This document shows positions 51,702 to 61,158 of a stretch of 64,000 bases of DNA, in pieces (the first letter of the stretch is position 1; every line of letters begins with the position of its first letter). The stretch is from the NCBI GenBank assembly GCA_037310415.1, contig CP147780.1, positions 1,696,001 to 1,760,000 on the forward strand, written 5' to 3'. The position numbers and the translations under genes are program-made. Source of the DNA: Candidatus Atabeyarchaeum deiterrae (GTDB taxonomy: Archaea; Asgardarchaeota; Atabeyarchaeia; Atabeyarchaeales; Atabeyarchaeaceae). Under the pieces are notes generated by a model. That model saw only the letters and a list, made by a program, of their open reading frames with translations. It made no database searches and was not told the DNA's origin.

Positions 51702-52227
51702 GGCATCGCTTCGCCTTCCACGATCAACCCGTCGCTGTAAAATTCAATTAAGCGCAGGAGAAACTACATAACATATTTGCCATGCTGCTTAAATCTTGTT
51801 GTCTGTTTCTGATCACGTTATAAATGGTTGTGCAGAAATGATGACTTAGTAGGATATTGTCCGACCCTGAACTCAAAATCCGCTCGGCTGAAGAAAAATC
51901 AAGGATCAGCGGGCTATCCAGACCTAGTGTTTCGGACGAGGGATCAAGATCTTATTGCTCTGCTTTCCGACCCAAGTTCATAGATGAAGCGTGGCTCCTA
52001 CAAAGATTTAAGGTTAGTATACTGCTAACACCTGTCATTTGGCAGCTGCCAACAATGAAGAAGAGATAAGTCAGTCTGAGTGCAATTACGGGTCCCTTTC
52101 CGAACAATTGGGTGAGCTTGTATAACAATTCGTTCAATGTTTGCCAGATGCGTATGAAACATTGCTACGGGAGATGGCGTGACTAACGCGAAGACCACTT
52201 GCAATCACGGCGCTTTCAAGCCTTGCA

Positions 52228-53304
52228 ATGAGTGCTGCATTTCTATTCATTCCCGACCTAGCAGAAGACCTTGGTGCAGACAACACCATGGTCGGGATTA
52301 TCGGCGCTGTCTATGCTCTGGCACTCTTCATCTCTTCATATATCTTCGGGAGAGCATCGGACATCCATGATAGAAGACTCATCATCAAAATAGGGCTTGC
52401 ACTCTCGGTGTTGACCTTTCTAATGCAAGCGCTCGCCGATCCATATTTCTTCGCTCCGCTTCTAAGCAACCCCACACTGCTCACACTTGTCCGATTCCTT
52501 GCAGGCTTCACAGCTGGAATCAGCCCGGCCGCACTTACGGCGTACGTTCATGACGCGAAGGGTAGAATGGGGAAGTTCTCTGCATATGGGTCACTCGGCT
52601 CAGGAATCGGAACACTGATAGCTGGCTTCATCGCAATATATTGGGGCATATTTATCGTAAGCTCTCTGTGTTTCCTCATGGCATTCCTAGTCTCATTATC
52701 AATGCCCTACCGTAAGTGCACACCGCTCAAGATCTCTTTCTTCCCAAAAACTCTAATGAAAAGGAATTGGTACGTTTACATATCGTTCTTTCTCAGGAAT
52801 CTTGGGGCTAACGCTATATGGGTTGTTTTTCCGCTTTTCATCATAAGCATCGGAGGCGACAAGTTCTGGATTGGAATCATCTACACAATCAACTGGTTTG
52901 GTCAATTCATCATCATGTCATTCCTTGACCGATTCAGGGGTAGAAGGCTGCTGGGCGCTGGTCTTCTTCTATCCACTGTTGCATTCATAGCATTCACCTT
53001 TGCTCAGCAATACTATGAGTTGATTCCCATGCAACTGCTGATTGCATCTGCCTGGTCATGCCTGTACGTCGGCGCGCTCGTCTATCTAATGGAGAATAAC
53101 ATCGAAAAAGCCACGTCAACGGGAGTCCTCAACTCAGCATCCAATCTATCAGTAGTTTTCGGAAGTCTGTTAGGAGGTATCGTCTCAGAGCTCTTTGGCT
53201 ACCCCGCAATAATGTATGTCGCAGCGATACTAACACTGCTTGGCTACGTCATCTTCAAGATTGGAGTTAGGAAAGTACTCACGCCTGGATCTCTCGCGAA
53301 GTAG
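52228..53304 (+). CDS. MFS transporter
   Basis: GRASDIHDRR motif A, about 12 TM. The reading frame extends upstream to 52183 with no canonical start. Confidence 0.88.
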   Translation: MSAAFLFIPDLAEDLGADNTMVGIIGAVYALALFISSYIFGRASDIHDRRLIIKIGLALSVLTFLMQALADPYFFAPLLSNPTLLTLVRFLAGFTAGISPAALTAYVHDAKGRMGKFSAYGSLGSGIGTLIAGFIAIYWGIFIVSSLCFLMAFLVSLSMPYRKCTPLKISFFPKTLMKRNWYVYISFFLRNLGANAIWVVFPLFIISIGGDKFWIGIIYTINWFGQFIIMSFLDRFRGRRLLGAGLLLSTVAFIAFTFAQQYYELIPMQLLIASAWSCLYVGALVYLMENNIEKATSTGVLNSASNLSVVFGSLLGGIVSELFGYPAIMYVAAILTLLGYVIFKIGVRKVLTPGSLAK

Positions 53305-53373
53305 GTTCTCGTTAGTAATATTAAGAGGGAACTCGAATAGTCAATTGGGCGCTAATGCGTCTCGGTGAGAATC

Positions 53374-53589
53374 ATGGGGTCAGCCACCAAACTGGGTAAA
53401 GAAATCTTACACTGCAAGGACTGTCCCAGATGGTACGGCGCTGAGGACGATGAGTCTGGTCCGTGCAGCATAAAACATGCCAGAGGAGACAAGAAGTACC
53501 TTACGCATGGACACCACGAGTGTGATGAACCTGAACAAATAGCATGGTTTGAGAAGAAAAAGAAGACAAGCAAGAGGAATACTCTTTAA
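53374..53589 (+). CDS. Small Cys/His metal-binding protein
   Basis: CKDC...GPCSIKH...HGHHECD; GGTGA SD before ATG. Confidence 0.7.
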   Translation: MGSATKLGKEILHCKDCPRWYGAEDDESGPCSIKHARGDKKYLTHGHHECDEPEQIAWFEKKKKTSKRNTL

Positions 53590-55790: not shown

Positions 55791-55824
55791 ATAGACAACA
55801 TAACTCAATTAAGGTGAAAATGAG

Positions 55825-56517
55825 TTGAGTCTTGCAATTCCACAAGTGAATATGAGTCCGAAAGGCGAACTAATACCAAATCCTGGCGAAAACGTAGTGC
55901 AGAATTATCACGACGTCCACTACGAGAAAAATGAAGGAGAAATCTACGTTACCGACGTTCGCCTTGTGTGGATTGGATTGAAACACAAGGGCGGCATGCT
56001 CGGAAAACTAGCCCGAGCTGCAGTAGTAGTAGGAGCAATCGCTGCAGGCGCAGCTGTCGGCTCTAGAGCTGGTAGGGCGATCGGAGCACCCGGCGTAGGA
56101 GGATTAGCAGGAGGAATTGGAGGTCTAACGCTAGCGACAATGATGACAAAGCATCCAGATGGCACTCCAACAACAATATCTGTACCCTACGAAGTTGTTA
56201 CAGACATCCAGGTTGCAAAGAACAAACAGGACCTGACAATGTCGACACAAGTAGGATCATTCCTATTCAGATTTGACAAAGGTGGAGCAGAAACAGTTGC
56301 TACCGTAGCTAAAGCACAGAAACTGGCAGCGCAGAAAAGACCAGCACCGCCGCCACCAATGCCTCAGTATCAACAACCGCAATATCAGCAGCCGCAATAC
56401 GCCCCTCAGCCACCACCGCGAGCTGGCGGAGCCTTCTACTGTCCTCACTGCGGAACGCCACAAGAACCTGGCGCAAGATTCTGCCACAACTGTGGGGCAA
56501 GGGTTGACGCCTACTAG
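55825..56517 (+). CDS. GRAM/GLUE-like PH-fold protein with a Gly-zipper insert, Pro/Gln/Tyr linker and C-terminal zinc ribbon
   Basis: PNPGENVV...EGEIYVTDVRLVWI; PQYQQ repeats; CPHCG...FCHNCG; AGGTGA SD. Confidence 0.75.
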   Translation: MSLAIPQVNMSPKGELIPNPGENVVQNYHDVHYEKNEGEIYVTDVRLVWIGLKHKGGMLGKLARAAVVVGAIAAGAAVGSRAGRAIGAPGVGGLAGGIGGLTLATMMTKHPDGTPTTISVPYEVVTDIQVAKNKQDLTMSTQVGSFLFRFDKGGAETVATVAKAQKLAAQKRPAPPPPMPQYQQPQYQQPQYAPQPPPRAGGAFYCPHCGTPQEPGARFCHNCGARVDAY

Positions 56518-56570
56518 AAAAGCGCGCAGACCGCAACTCTCACGCTGCAGGATGCGCCCTTGAATCCAAT

Positions 56571-56606
56571 CCCTATTTCTTTCTTTCTTGTCTTGTTTCT
56601 TCTCTG
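56571..56606 (+). terminator. Pyrimidine/oligo-T tract, probable terminator
   Basis: CCCTATTTCTTTCTTTCTTGTCTTGTTTCTTCTCTG, about 55 nt after the 56517 stop. Confidence 0.5.
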
Positions 56607-56794
56607 TTAGCTGGTTTCCGCGAAGCTGTTCGTGGATTTCCCTGAACCTCTTTCTCCTAGGATAGCATCCTCAATAGTCTGTCAGTTTGGCAGCATTGAT
56701 GGCTTTCTCAATCTCTGGGAAGATCTGCCTTTTGCGCATCACATTCTTTCGCGACATGTCGGCGACTCAGTCACAACAAAAACCACCGTTGAAG

Positions 56795-57160
56795 CACCGC
56801 CCTCTACAAGGCGGAAAATGTATTGTGAACTCGTCTAGAGCGCATTTCGAGTAGAGCGACTCATTGTAAAAAGGGCAGTCCTCGGAGGCTGAGGAATACT
56901 CCGAAAGGAGGGCCTTAACACGTTCTTCTATTAGAAGAGGATTTCGGAAATGGTTCAGTGTTTCGTCAACCATTAGGGTGGGTGCCTCCAGCCTCCGAAG
57001 AGAGCCATAGAGATCTATTGGATAGAGTGGTAAGAAGGGCTAGGGGGACATCCGTAAAAGTGAATGATGGAAGAGGTCACGAAGGTTTCAACTGGAAGAA
57101 TCAAGGATATGTTTTGCAGGGTCTTAACTTGAGGGCCAGTTGTATTTGCCCCCCAATGTT
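56795..57160 (+). ncRNA. Candidate structured non-coding RNA
   Basis: Nested stems: TCGGAGGCTG/CAGCCTCCGA (10 bp), CTCC-GAAA-GGAG, TCTTCT/AGAAGA, AATGGTT/AACCATT, and CAACTGG/CCAGTTG enclosing TCAAG/CTTGA; no long ORF. Confidence 0.3.
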
Positions 57161-57245
57161 GGAAGAGGCGTGGCAATGCCGTACTCCAGCAGGAAAGAGA
57201 GCAAAAAGGAGAACTGGCAAGTGCGGTTTCAGGTTGACCCTATCC

Positions 57246-58286
57246 TTAGCCTGAGCCCATTGCCTCGCTGAGCTTAACCTTCCAGCCCATCACTTTCTCA
57301 ATCAGGCTCTGTTTCTCGTTTCTGTCGAGAGATCTGCCTGGATATCTATTCAAGTCCCGAGCTACTTGCGCAAGGTCGTATATTGCGCCGAATTTGCGGG
57401 TCATGCCCATGATCCTGTCGCGAACATCTAAGATGGCCTTCGCTGCTGTTCCAGCATTCATATTCATCGCTTCTTCGATCGGACCGAATATCTCGTCCAC
57501 TGAACTGGAGACCGCTCGCGGAGCGCCATACATCGGTGGTGGTCTACTAGGCGCCTGAGATAGTGAGGGTGTCATGGATGGTGGCGGACCGCCTGAAGTC
57601 GGAATAGCCCTTCGATCCGCAGAAAGTGACGGTGGTGTTGCTGCAGGAACAGCTGGCTGCTCTGGTGCTGTTTCTCTGGCAGCAGAAACTTTTGTTCCTT
57701 GGAGAGTTTGAAGTGCAGTTCTTGAGGCTTTTTCGAGACCCCTCACTGCTTCCAATGCTTGTAAGCCTGTTTCCTTCAGAGTGATCATCTGAGCGTTAAC
57801 CTCTCCAAGGTTTAGGCTCTCCACTATTCTCCTTGAGACTTCGCTGGCCTCAGCTGGCTGCAGAGAAGGCGTCTTGGCTGCCTGTAAGCTCTCGTTAATG
57901 GTTCTGACTGCCCCGAGTGCCTTTTCACTTTCGGTTCTGATCGCAACTACCTGCTTAGTGGCTTCTCCTATGTCCGGAGCCTTGAAGGATTGCAGTCCCT
58001 CCAAGGTTTGCTTCGATGATTCCTCAAGGAGCTTCAAAGCTTCAAGGGATCTCTGTGTACTCTCTCTGAACAGAGTCAGATGTTCAGCTACCTCTTCTAG
58101 TTTGATAACAGTATTGGTCAGCGGTGCGACCATGTTGTCGACCTGTGCTAGCAACTTGTTGACACGCAAGCCGACGTCGTCGGTCAACGCCTTGAGAAAA
58201 GTGATAATCTGATCAACTTCCTTGATCAAATCATTTGTCTTCATGCCAACTTTCTTCTCAATCTCTGTTTCTTCAGTTTCTCCCAA
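57246..58286 (-). CDS. Coiled-coil protein with a Pro-rich linker and a C-terminal four-helix bundle (Vps28-CTD-like pattern)
   Basis: Heptad N-terminal ~200 aa; P/S/A-rich linker; C-terminal ~85 aa helical domain. TTG 58286 follows GAGGTG. Confidence 0.8.
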   Translation of the reverse strand: MGETEETEIEKKVGMKTNDLIKEVDQIITFLKALTDDVGLRVNKLLAQVDNMVAPLTNTVIKLEEVAEHLTLFRESTQRSLEALKLLEESSKQTLEGLQSFKAPDIGEATKQVVAIRTESEKALGAVRTINESLQAAKTPSLQPAEASEVSRRIVESLNLGEVNAQMITLKETGLQALEAVRGLEKASRTALQTLQGTKVSAARETAPEQPAVPAATPPSLSADRRAIPTSGGPPPSMTPSLSQAPSRPPPMYGAPRAVSSSVDEIFGPIEEAMNMNAGTAAKAILDVRDRIMGMTRKFGAIYDLAQVARDLNRYPGRSLDRNEKQSLIEKVMGWKVKLSEAMGSG

Positions 58287-58522
58287 TTCTAGAAAGCACC
58301 TCTCTAGCTTGACCCCTTCCTCAAACATCCTCAGGGAACTCTGAGAATGCCAGGTGGTCTCTGTTTCGAGACATTTCACACAGATGTAATTAGCTTCTCT
58401 GTATTATAATACCTTTGCGATTGAGTGCCGACATCAGAGACTAATGCCAACAGAATCTCAACGCTGATCTAAAAGAGCGTCGAAGCAAATCCGTGTTGGC
58501 AAATACAGTTTCGGTGCGCTGC

Positions 58523-58804
58523 TTATAGTTCAGCTTCCATTGTTCTCTTTAACAGCCTCATGACATCGAGGGAACCAGTCTTTTCATAGAACTCCTTCAT
58601 GCGTGCAATGCAGAACTCGACTCCATGTGACCTATTGCCGAAGGTTACCTTCTGAACCATGGAGTCGACCCAATCAAGTAAGTTCTTGTCGATAGACAGA
58701 GTAGTAGCAGCTTTGCTTCCTGTTGCTTTTCCGTTTGGTTTCCCGCTCAACGTGACGGTAACTTCAGGAACCTTCGGAAGCTTGGGTCTTCGTCCCATAA
58801 CCAA
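58523..58804 (-). CDS. Ribbon-helix-helix (CopG/NikR-like) DNA-binding protein
   Basis: TTLSIDKNLLDWVDSMV...FGNRSHGVEFCI pattern. Confidence 0.8.
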   Translation of the reverse strand: MVMGRRPKLPKVPEVTVTLSGKPNGKATGSKAATTLSIDKNLLDWVDSMVQKVTFGNRSHGVEFCIARMKEFYEKTGSLDVMRLLKRTMEAEL

Positions 58805-59175: not shown

Positions 59176-61158
59176 TTGAATAGTCAAAAACATGGGAAAA
59201 TGAGGGGAACTAATAAGACGCCAACAAAAGTGAATCTATTGGCAGTAGCACTAATCACCACGTGCATCATTGTGTCGACCTCCCTAATAGGTCTGACGAC
59301 CACCAGAGCAACCGTAGGCGGAGTCGACAACGAGGATCTCCCTATTGGAAACATGAGACAAGTTCCGTTGGACATCAAAATCGTTTTCATCGGAATAAAA
59401 CAGCAATATATCAACATCACAGACGGGTACTTCAATTGGACACTGCCGCCTTACCACATCCAGAGAGAAACATGGTATGGAACCAACTGGGGGGTAAACT
59501 ACACTTTCAACTACAGCTACAGTCTTAACCAGACATTCGACGATGACTTCTTCAACTACATTCACTTCGGGGCAGGAGTCAGGAAAGATGTCCTTGGCCT
59601 AACCAACCCCTATAACGGACTAGGCGGGACGTACCGCTTCTACAACGCGAACAAGGTGGACGACTGGCTTTACAGCAACCCTCAGGGCTACGGCGGGATC
59701 CCCACAAAGGGATACGCACTTTTCCTAATCAACGTGACATACAGGGACTCATACATCCCTTCAGTCAGACAACACTACTACAATCTGACTTACAGCGACA
59801 TAGACTCAACTGGGATCGTAACGGGAGACTGGTATGGTCAGTGGATGACAGGATGGGGAGGACATCATCGGCTTTACTATATTGACTTATCAGCAGGTGT
59901 AAGCGCGGCATCGGTGGCGGCATTCGGCCCCGCTCAACGGTGGTGGAACCGCTACTTCCCGCCTCTATGGAATCTCAATATCAACTTGGGAACGGAGAAC
60001 GGCATCAATTTCTTCAACAAGTACTTATCCGACTTCGTCTTCGGGGCAGTCTACGATTGCTTCACACCAGACTTCCTCTATGCGCCAAGGATAGCGCCGA
60101 CGCCGAACATGCACTACAACATAACGATAGTCATCTTTGACAACTGCACAGACTATGCGAATAAGACACTTGAAGGAGCACTCCCACCCTATGGTCCGGA
60201 TTTTGCCATAAACCAGTCAGCGATTTTGAAGGCTTTCAGAAGTTTGGTGCCTTATGCGACATGGACACTGAACCTCACTCACGTTCACCAAGTAGGACCT
60301 GGACCTGGTCCCTATGGCACTCTGTGGCAAGTAATCAGGAGCGCTGAGAGGACAACTGATGCATTTGGGAACCCAGTGCAATATGTCGACAGAGATATAC
60401 TCTACCATCACTTACAGGCACATCTCGCAGACTTCGGTCTCAGGCAATCGGCAGGGCAGCTTCTAATACCCGTCTTCGTGTTCGCCTTCAAAGGCACATT
60501 CAACTTGGGGTACCAATATGAGGGATACGAGTACGATAACTACTGGGGATTTGGATACCCAGACGTTGTTCTTGTAAGCCACTCACTCTATGACCTAACA
60601 GGTATACCTCCACCGCCGCCTCCAGTGCTATTCCCGGCGGTTCCTCAAGGCTTCACACAGACGATAATACACGAGACTGGTCACGCTGTTGGTTTGATTC
60701 ACCCATTCTGGTGGGACTACGACGAGGACTATGTATCATCAGCTATGGCTTACTACCCGTACGAGTACGGGTTTAGCCAGTTCGACAAAGACGCCATACA
60801 AAGGGGGCACGCAGACTACTACATAATCCGGGCTCTATCCATGATGGAGAACGCGACAGTGCTCAAAACCACAAGACAAATGACCGCAGCACTCCTCAAG
60901 CTATACAACCAAGCAACTGGAAACCTGACCACGGCCAACACGGATTATGCAAGCATGAACTACTATCCTGCGATGACCAATGGAAGTACGGCTCTCAGCC
61001 TATTCGCGCAGTTTGTACTTGGAGCAAGTGGGCAACCTCTGCTCACCACCTCAGCAGCACCCCCTGATATTATGGTTCCGGTAATTGCTTCAGTTATAGT
61101 GGGGATCGTAGTAGGTGTAGCTATAGGGCAATTCATGGGAAGAAAACGAAAGAAATAG
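59176..61158 (+). CDS. Membrane-anchored extracellular zinc metalloprotease (metzincin-like)
   Basis: Signal/anchor N-terminus, HETGHAVGLIH, SAM Met-turn, C-terminal TM + RKRKK, many N-x-S/T sequons. Confidence 0.85.
   Translation: MNSQKHGKMRGTNKTPTKVNLLAVALITTCIIVSTSLIGLTTTRATVGGVDNEDLPIGNMRQVPLDIKIVFIGIKQQYINITDGYFNWTLPPYHIQRETWYGTNWGVNYTFNYSYSLNQTFDDDFFNYIHFGAGVRKDVLGLTNPYNGLGGTYRFYNANKVDDWLYSNPQGYGGIPTKGYALFLINVTYRDSYIPSVRQHYYNLTYSDIDSTGIVTGDWYGQWMTGWGGHHRLYYIDLSAGVSAASVAAFGPAQRWWNRYFPPLWNLNINLGTENGINFFNKYLSDFVFGAVYDCFTPDFLYAPRIAPTPNMHYNITIVIFDNCTDYANKTLEGALPPYGPDFAINQSAILKAFRSLVPYATWTLNLTHVHQVGPGPGPYGTLWQVIRSAERTTDAFGNPVQYVDRDILYHHLQAHLADFGLRQSAGQLLIPVFVFAFKGTFNLGYQYEGYEYDNYWGFGYPDVVLVSHSLYDLTGIPPPPPPVLFPAVPQGFTQTIIHETGHAVGLIHPFWWDYDEDYVSSAMAYYPYEYGFSQFDKDAIQRGHADYYIIRALSMMENATVLKTTRQMTAALLKLYNQATGNLTTANTDYASMNYYPAMTNGSTALSLFAQFVLGASGQPLLTTSAAPPDIMVPVIASVIVGIVVGVAIGQFMGRKRKK

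Follow-up and report, generated by a model that had tools for sequence, protein, structure and literature searches.

ESCRT-like domain folds in two nearby genes of the soil Asgard archaeon Candidatus Atabeyarchaeum deiterrae

Two nearby genes of Candidatus Atabeyarchaeum deiterrae, a soil Asgard archaeon, were found to encode ESCRT-like domain folds within the analysed stretch of 64,000 nucleotides (the window). Gene A was shown to encode a PH domain of the GRAM/GLUE/BBS5 group followed by a zinc ribbon, and the C-terminal four-helix bundle of gene B was shown by structure and profile comparison to be a divergent homologue of the Vps28 C-terminal domain (Vps28-CTD). The two are independent genes, which close two converging gene runs within an Atabeyarchaeia-wide block. 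The reading we favored, at a probability of roughly 60%, was that gene A encodes a membrane-anchored PH protein and gene B a coiled-coil Vps28-C-like adaptor, as independent neighbours. The features of the locus were as follows, in positions of the window.

55825-56517, forward strand: gene A, 230 aa, TTG start; split PH domain, Pro/Gln linker and C-terminal zinc ribbon
55831-55977, forward strand: gene A PH domain, part 1, strands 1-3 (pLDDT 90-97)
55978-56166, forward strand: gene A insertion of ~62 aa (residues 52-114) in the strand 3/4 loop
56167-56337, forward strand: gene A PH domain, part 2, strands 4-7 and C-terminal helix
56338-56433, forward strand: gene A linker, Pro/Gln/Tyr-rich and flexible (pLDDT <50 at residues 182-199)
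56434-56508, forward strand: gene A zinc ribbon, C-x2-C-x10-C-x2-C; Pfam Zn_Ribbon_1 (PF13240), E 1.9e-8, above cut-off
56574-56607, forward strand: T-rich tract after gene A
56767-56973, reverse strand: Cys-rich gene, 68 aa
57246-58286, reverse strand: gene B, 346 aa, TTG start at 58286
57249-57515, reverse strand: gene B C-terminal four-helix bundle (model pLDDT 93)
57516-57674, reverse strand: gene B Pro-rich linker, poorly conserved
57687-58286, reverse strand: gene B N-terminal region, amphipathic, helical/coiled-coil
58523-58798, reverse strand: small RHH-like gene, 91 aa (open reading frame first given as 58523-58804)

The coordinates assigned to genes A and B in the original prediction were correct, and both TTG starts agreed with those of homologues; a longer GTG start of gene B (58379) was rejected, as the homologues start at the position of 58286. 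The two genes had been described as convergent, and they did end converging gene runs, but they were not face to face: the 728-bp gap between them contained the Cys-rich gene, absent from that prediction. The T-rich tract behind gene A is a possible archaeal terminator. No Rfam match and no meaningful repeat was found in the gaps between genes. A contig from the RNA library of one small wetland metatranscriptome was 100% identical over 55824-56562, spanning gene A, which shows presence only; gene B was covered by no contig, a result without weight.

The architecture proposed for gene B, a helical/coiled-coil region, a Pro-rich linker and a four-helix bundle, was confirmed. The first ~80 residues were highly conserved, and with gene B as query the N-terminal region was found only in Atabeyarchaeia. 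When the bundle was compared with 48,161 chains, yeast Vps28-CTD (2j9u_A) ranked first with Z 9.9, rmsd 3.1 and 86 aligned residues, compared to 8.7 for the next match; this Z is below 13, the level from which a match between bundles can be trusted by itself. The Vps28-CTD structures of yeast (2J9U, 2J9V, 2G3K) and Xenopus (2J9W) gave Z of 9.8-10.0 and rmsd of 3.0-3.3 over 86-87 residues, the TM to the Atlas VPS28 cluster was 0.75, and the Foldseek E-values were all >0.4. By HHalign, the wider gene B family matched canonical Asgard Vps28-CTD at 87% (E 3.7e-6), with a score of 35 compared to a shuffled maximum of 19.7; the wider family was required for this match, the Atabeyarchaeia sequences alone giving a non-significant 2.9%. 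Neither Pfam nor PDB sequence searches returned a Vps28 match for the bundle, and PF03997 was matched in the genome solely at C1:344155-344727 (E up to 1). The guess of a Vps28-CTD-like bundle was thus upheld by the best structural match and by the profile alignment, which showed gene B to belong, as a member specific to Atabeyarchaeia, to a large Vps28-CTD-like family of Asgards (B-type domain). Gene B differed from Vps28 in its long helical N-terminus and Pro-rich linker, which stand in place of the Vps28 core hairpin.

The B-type domain was present in 222 of 301 Asgard genomes, and Pfam missed the family in about three quarters of the genomes sampled. The host genome carried 5-6 copies (4-5 besides gene B). 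As had been predicted, genes A and B lay outside the canonical ESCRT cluster: the host cluster, Vps4-Vps25-Vps22-Vps28-Vps23 with its own Vps28, was located at C1:341-346 kb, 1.4 Mb from gene B. Stand-alone Asgard Vps28-C proteins have already been published as a class in which the domain is fused to non-Vps28 N-termini outside the core operon (PMC10936438), and gene B, with its Vps28-C-like domain, non-Vps28 N-terminus and position outside the core operon, adds to this class. One described member, Thorarchaeota KXH73277.1, combines a BAR-like N-terminus with Vps28-C (HHpred 84% to 2J9U_A; Makarova et al. 2024, PMC10936438). Gene B shares with these multidomain proteins a helical N-terminus and a patchy, lineage-specific occurrence; its own N-terminus is specific to Atabeyarchaeia, and KXH73277.1 was compared by description.

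An ESCRT role of gene B would rest on fold homology and on analogy. The bundle may instead share its ancestry with Vps28-CTD but now mediate docking in general, beyond ESCRT, for instance in cytoskeletal or regulatory complexes. This would agree with the fusions of B-type domains to ARPC4-like, winged-helix, TrmB and other non-ESCRT proteins, with the location of the examined B-type genes, none of which adjoined ESCRT genes, with an identity of just 8-13% to solved Vps28-CTD, and with a tree, built on few columns, in which canonical Vps28 sequences lay on one side of a branch (98/94) that excluded gene B and the B-type domains. However, published Asgard proteins in which Vps28-C is fused to adaptin and longin domains suggest trafficking (PMC10936438), and residues of helices 3-4 were common to the B family and canonical Vps28; we considered this alternative unlikely.

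For gene A, a PH-like domain with a zinc ribbon had been proposed, and both were found, the former in the structure model and the latter by Pfam. The top Foldseek match was Vps36 GLUE (2cay_B, E 1.4e-4), closely followed by BBS5 (E 2.9e-4). The structural scores were Z 13.9 for BBS5, 12.4 for MTMR2, 12.4 for 2cay (rmsd 2.8, 109 residues aligned) and 12.1 for Lam6, and BBS5 was also the best PDB sequence-profile match (E 2.4e-4). Among 30 homologues, weak Pfam matches were obtained to BBL5 in 17 and to Vps36 in 4; for gene A itself the BBS5 and GRAM matches were below Pfam cut-offs, and PF11605 was not matched. In the best 50 structural matches, eukaryotic GRAM/GLUE/BBS5 chains outscored every solved bacterial PH domain; bacterial PH domains likewise give GLUE and GRAM as top structural matches (PMC2817789). 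The model places the N-terminal domain in the GRAM/GLUE/BBS5 group, where Vps36 GLUE ties with BBS5 and GRAM instead of standing out as the best match. The structural check against Vps36 GLUE and Vps28-CTD matched both folds, without singling out GLUE. BBS5 PH and the GRAM domains of myotubularin, Lam6 and WBP2-like proteins match gene A as well as or better than GLUE, but gene A has a single PH domain, a unique insertion and a zinc ribbon.

Residues E22 and R46 were invariant in the first part of the PH domain and may form the buried Glu-Arg pair that PHb, GRAM and GLUE domains typically carry (PMC2817789). The insertion was basic, Gly/Ala-rich and hydrophobic with low pLDDT, and it was present in 30 of 30 aligned homologues with 62-76 aa, 33-47% G+A and K+R of 6-12 versus D+E of 0-6. 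With a best 19-residue hydropathy of 1.74 in gene A, it is likely a membrane-inserting hairpin. Prokaryotic PHb proteins with SHOCT, glycine-zipper or zinc-ribbon parts resemble gene A in the invariant pair, the small size and the C-terminal tag; they differ in that the gene A family is Asgard-confined and that solved PHb structures were absent from its best 50 matches. Atlas feature searches gave matches below 0.9, taken as leads only, one of which was PF27000 PH_gly_zipper.

The zinc ribbon, whose segment reads FYCPHCGTPQ, is of a type found on 22 ORFs in the genome, and its PDB sequence matches were DZANK1, ArnA and eL40, with NZF absent from the top 60. The consensus of NZF is W-x-C-x2-C-x3-N, and its Cys spacing is the same as in the gene A ribbon. 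The W and N residues of NZF and its TF motif, which is ubiquitin-binding (PMC2700381), were carried by 0 of 80 gene A homologues. In gene A the ribbon follows the PH helix and the insertion has no Cys, and homologues bear 1-3 ribbons, all behind the PH domain; in yeast Vps36, NZF fingers are inserted within the split PH domain (PMC2700381, PMC10936438). By consensus, the ribbon was classified as a generic C-terminal type and not NZF. Like Vps36/EAP45 GLUE (2CAY, 2HTH; PF11605), which binds phosphoinositide, ubiquitin and Vps28-CTD, gene A has a PH fold of the GRAM type, interrupted by an insertion, and carries a zinc module with four Cys on the same chain; unlike in Vps36, the insertion of gene A is a putative Gly/Ala hairpin and, by Pfam, gene A lacks the EAP30 tandem winged helices, which are encoded elsewhere in the genome. 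Of the GLUE/GRAM assignment, the PH fold of this group stood, while the GLUE/NZF anatomy was missing.

Six Atabeyarchaeia assemblies retained the housekeeping block containing A and B, which also included GNAT, PfkB, MFS and P-type ATPase genes. The distance between A and B was 0.7-2.6 kb, with 1, 2, 2, 2, 3 or more, and 5 genes between them, and the closeness held in every Atabeyarchaeia assembly showing both sides. One of these assemblies, at first sight non-syntenic, was counted as syntenic in view of a 133-nt overlap (94.7%) between its two contigs. Outside Atabeyarchaeia no A-B linkage was found: B-type, Vps28-CTD or ESCRT genes were near 0 of 80 loci of other Asgard A homologues (up to 4 kb on each side), where common neighbours were CofE (53), a topoisomerase VI B-like gene (46) and an acyl-CoA dehydrogenase-like gene (31), and among the pairs listed for the 69 genomes outside Atabeyarchaeia that carry both, the smallest distance was 23 kb. 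A close relative of gene A occurred as two tandem copies, with B absent from the surrounding 8 kb. The closeness of A and B is explicable without a direct complex. Genes of interacting proteins need not adjoin, so that missing synteny does not exclude binding between A and B. A complex prediction with the B bundle, the A zinc ribbon and Zn scored 0.00 ('no answer') and was counted neither way.

The gene A family was single-copy, found in Atabey-, Thor-, Hermod- and Jord/Freyarchaeia and, as far as detectable, confined to Asgards; we found no literature report on it in an incomplete coverage, and gene A belongs to an unnamed PH family of Asgards that bears a membrane-type insertion. In one Asgard family, gene A occurred in 18 of 19 genomes versus 0 of 19 for the B-type domain, and in another in 0 of 68 versus 65 of 68. 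Gene A might be an adaptor at the membrane whose partner in trans is a Vps28-C-type domain, either that of canonical Vps28 or that of any paralogue; it would then feed ESCRT without being paired with B. Its single copy in several classes, the presence of canonical Vps28 or a B-type domain in every lineage with gene A, and the EAP30 (Vps22/36) proteins of the genome, whose lack of a PH domain leaves the GLUE role unfilled, would fit. Yet for most of the Asgard families having full ESCRT sets no gene A was detected, no ESCRT gene accompanied the 80 homologues, PH and zinc ribbon proteins also occur in Methanobacteriota, bacterial PH domains are similar (PMC2817789), and the host genome has a second PH and zinc ribbon gene, so this was held to be decidedly unlikely. 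Still less likely, the family would be an Asgard precursor from which the GLUE/BBS5-type PH module arose, standing alone and hairpin-anchored, with a ribbon binding Vps28-C-like domains of B or its paralogues, the yeast ESCRT-I/II link thus existing as separate proteins before the Vps36 fusion.

Asgard ESCRT-II has no GLUE, and the ESCRT-I to ESCRT-II link in some Asgards has been stated as open (PMC9192718), a gap that the A-B pair, if true, would fill. The original prediction of a stand-alone ESCRT-I/II bridge, with the A ribbon binding the B bundle and the A PH domain binding lipid, is favored by matching folds, the Cys spacing and the closeness in Atabeyarchaeia, but it is very improbable given the tie of GLUE, the ribbon outside the PH domain, the lack of a winged-helix part for joining ESCRT-II in A and of a steadiness-box match in B, and a neighbourhood that includes unrelated enzymes, with no linkage or matching range beyond one lineage. 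What stands is a Vps28-CTD-like family missed by Pfam and the unnamed PH family.

In the favored reading of an independent membrane PH protein and adaptor, the N-terminal helices of gene B would form an oligomeric stalk, reach would come from the Pro-rich linker, and the bundle would dock on a partner; this could plausibly be ESCRT-II/III, without recourse to core ESCRT-I, as proposed for the Asgard Vps28-C class (PMC10936438). The basic Gly/Ala hairpin would most likely serve gene A as membrane anchor, with the ribbon as a protein-binding tag on a flexible tether. Znr_PH_CC_SB (asCOG cog.011556), a proposed ESCRT-I part, is likewise an Asgard protein combining PH and zinc ribbons; it has three ribbons, a coiled coil, a steadiness box and ~650 aa, whereas gene A has the PH domain first, one ribbon, 230 aa, and a model without coiled coil or hairpin.

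Of the regulator predicted upstream of B, the gene itself proved real, conserved (81-86% identical in relatives, though missing upstream of B in one) and plausible in its strand-helix-helix pattern, with ATG at 58798 as likely start; it had no Pfam match of its own, and 1 of 7 family members matched RHH_1 (PF01402) below cut-off (E 0.0067). From the alignment it is probably a ribbon-helix-helix regulator. It ends 236 bp before the start of gene B, a gap at which co-transcription of the two is no more than a possibility. The Cys-rich gene encoded a four-cysteine Asgard mobile domain (C-x10-C-x11-C-x9-C) that matched no Pfam family. Its 3 paralogues in the genome and the excess of changes at third positions (23-25 versus 6-12 at positions 1-2) indicated that it is protein-coding.

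Gene A, which encodes a PH domain with a C-terminal zinc ribbon, gene B, whose product ends in a four-helix bundle, and a small gene for a probable ribbon-helix-helix regulator (58523-58804, -) were present as first described, with starts consistent with homologues. The two genes were also predicted to face each other from opposite strands. The strands were confirmed, but A and B are not directly face to face because a four-Cys protein gene, absent from the first description, sits in the 728-bp gap between them.

55825-56517, +: gene A, 230 aa, start agrees with homologues
57246-58286, -: gene B, 346 aa, start agrees with homologues
56767-56973, -: four-Cys protein gene, 68 aa, inside the A-B gap

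Compared with five orthologues, changes in the four-Cys gene were concentrated at third codon positions; three paralogues (C1:229761, 917514 and 2307493, whole-genome coordinates) were found in the source genome and relatives in 36/201 Asgard genomes. Its unnamed domain (C-x10-C-x11-C-x9-C) occurred on its own and in fusions with longin-like, multi-pass membrane or winged-helix-like proteins, and the gene came after B at every Atabeyarchaeia locus seen. An RNA-library contig matched gene A exactly over 55824-56562, from 1 base before the start codon to 45 nt beyond the stop, although such contigs are no proof of transcript ends.

The last 89 residues of B were modelled as a four-helix bundle with a pLDDT of 93. 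Among 48,161 chains, its best match was the yeast Vps28-CTD (2j9u_A; Z 9.9, rmsd 3.1, 86 aligned; next Z 8.7), and three Vps28 entries ranked on top in a second structural look. Since a Z of about 10 is not decisive for a helical bundle, sequence support was sought. The 63-member profile of B-type domains (bundles like that of B) gave 63% against canonical Asgard Vps28-CTD and 87% against Vps28 plus Pfam-positive fusion proteins (E 3.7e-6; score 35, shuffled maximum 19.7), and reversed and coiled-coil controls with a smaller B profile gave <2%. In the Atlas the bundle matched a eukaryotic VPS28 cluster (TM 0.75). The structural ranks, profile score and Atlas cluster indicated that the modelled bundle is a divergent Vps28-CTD homologue, and the original prediction was thus borne out by structural ranking and profile alignment. 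B is not Vps28 itself: PF03997 matched only at C1:344155-344727, within a Vps4-Vps25-Vps22-Vps28-UEV/Vps23 cluster 1.4 Mb from B, and Vps28 rows grouped apart from B in the tree (97 columns; deep support weak).

Full-length B homologues were not found beyond Atabeyarchaeia-like sequences. Separately encoded and multidomain Asgard Vps28-C proteins have been described, including a Thorarchaeota protein with a BAR-like helical N-terminus (Makarova et al. 2024, PMC10936438); B is a new member of this class and likewise pairs a helical N-terminus with a Vps28-C-like domain. We infer that B would be an oligomeric adaptor with a helical stalk, a flexible Pro linker and a Vps28-C-like docking head. 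In line with a proposal for the class (PMC10936438), the head may bypass core ESCRT-I in contacting ESCRT-II/III; that B acts outside ESCRT is unlikely.

The B-type domain was detected in 222/301 Asgard genomes and 5-6 times in the source genome. One copy (L191:80-1219; C1:1319979-1321118, -) was fused to an ARPC4-like domain, whose Pfam match (E 0.0085) fell short of the cut-off. This fusion, also found in the closest relative (G001), is a possible link of actin-nucleator-like to ESCRT-like modules; ARPC4-like proteins of two other genomes (G003, G037) had no bundle. Further B-type proteins (C1:2376637-2377815, 2427360-2428442, 51714-52526) comprised a ~170-aa tandem pair, a 350-aa paralogue rich in Pro and Gln, and a weakly matching protein that combines a coiled coil with a winged helix. 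In the Thorarchaeia family f6 (e.g. L062-L084), PF03997 Vps28 was found in 0/17 genomes and a conserved coiled-coil plus B-type protein in 72/76, which may stand in for Vps28 there. Small stand-alone Vps28-C genes lay directly 3' of canonical vps28 at five loci (L141, L144, L148, L150, L163), an arrangement already published.

The PH domain of A was modelled by AlphaFold with seven strands and a C-terminal helix (core pLDDT >90). In Foldseek the leading match was yeast Vps36 GLUE (E 1.4e-4), followed by BBS5 (2.9e-4) and Lam6 GRAM; an exhaustive aligner gave Z of 13.9 for BBS5, 12.4 for MTMR2 GRAM, 12.4 for Vps36 and 12.1 for Lam6, and BBS5 was the top sequence-profile match (E 2.4e-4). These scores placed the predicted domain in the GRAM/GLUE/BBS5 group, with GLUE not favoured. 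The strand 3/4 loop lies on the lipid-binding face in typical PH domains. In A a basic, Gly/Ala-rich hydrophobic insertion of 62-76 aa splits the domain there, was kept in 30/30 aligned homologues, and would form a membrane-inserting hairpin. GRAM and GLUE are likewise top matches for bacterial PH domains (PMC2817789). Yeast Vps36 also has a split PH domain, and its GLUE insertion contains two NZF fingers (PMC2700381), whereas the insertion of A has no zinc fingers and the zinc module lies outside the PH domain. This module matched Pfam Zn_Ribbon_1 (E 1.9e-8), resembled DZANK1 and ArnA ribbons, and is of a type common to 22 ORFs in the source genome; NZF and ubiquitin-binding TF motifs occurred in 0/80 A homologues examined. 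A does not qualify as Vps36. Present as a single copy in 95/301 Asgard genomes (Thor-, Hermod-, Jord- and Freyarchaeia), it looks like an unnamed PH family working like a GRAM/GLUE-type adaptor, presumably anchored at the membrane and carrying a generic zinc-ribbon tag. That A binds some Vps28-C domain in trans seems improbable. Another Asgard PH plus zinc-ribbon protein, Znr_PH_CC_SB, is an ESCRT-I candidate (Makarova et al. 2024, PMC10936438). Hatano et al. 2022 detected no full-length Vps36 and, for Odinarchaeota, left the ESCRT-I/II link open. A second PH plus zinc-ribbon gene in the source genome (L193:141-716; C1:579840-580415, -) lacked the Gly/Ala insertion and weakly matched bPH_3 and Vps36_ESCRT-II.

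A and B shared one block with GNAT, PfkB, MFS and P-type ATPase genes in 6 Atabeyarchaeia assemblies, separated by one to five genes; the loss of one usual intervening gene brought them closer in the source genome. Outside Atabeyarchaeia, B-type, Vps28-CTD or other ESCRT genes occurred at 0/80 loci around A homologues. Among top-listed matches, A and a B-type domain lay on one contig in 6/69 non-Atabeyarchaeia genomes having both, 23 kb to 2 Mb apart. The ranges were discordant: A was found in 18/19 and the B-type domain in 0/19 genomes of one family, against 0/68 and 65/68 in another, where zero means not found with the query used and related genomes are not independent. Gene order, folds and ranges are observed and the adaptor roles inferred; with these roles, A and B are most likely independent neighbours (probability about 0.6). 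Both domains are real, but their pairing as an ESCRT-I/II bridge is unsupported, and a specific A-B bridge is very improbable. A tandem duplicate of an A-like gene on a metagenome contig (L198:7049-8675), adjoined by TPR and XPB genes, had no B nearby.

Elsewhere in the window, 59176-61158 (+) encodes a 660-aa protein with hydrophobic segments at both termini, an HExxH motif and a weak Astacin match, probably a membrane-anchored metallopeptidase. A 74-aa Cys/His-rich gene (53365-53589, +) upstream of the GNAT gene was 64-83% conserved in Atabeyarchaeia.
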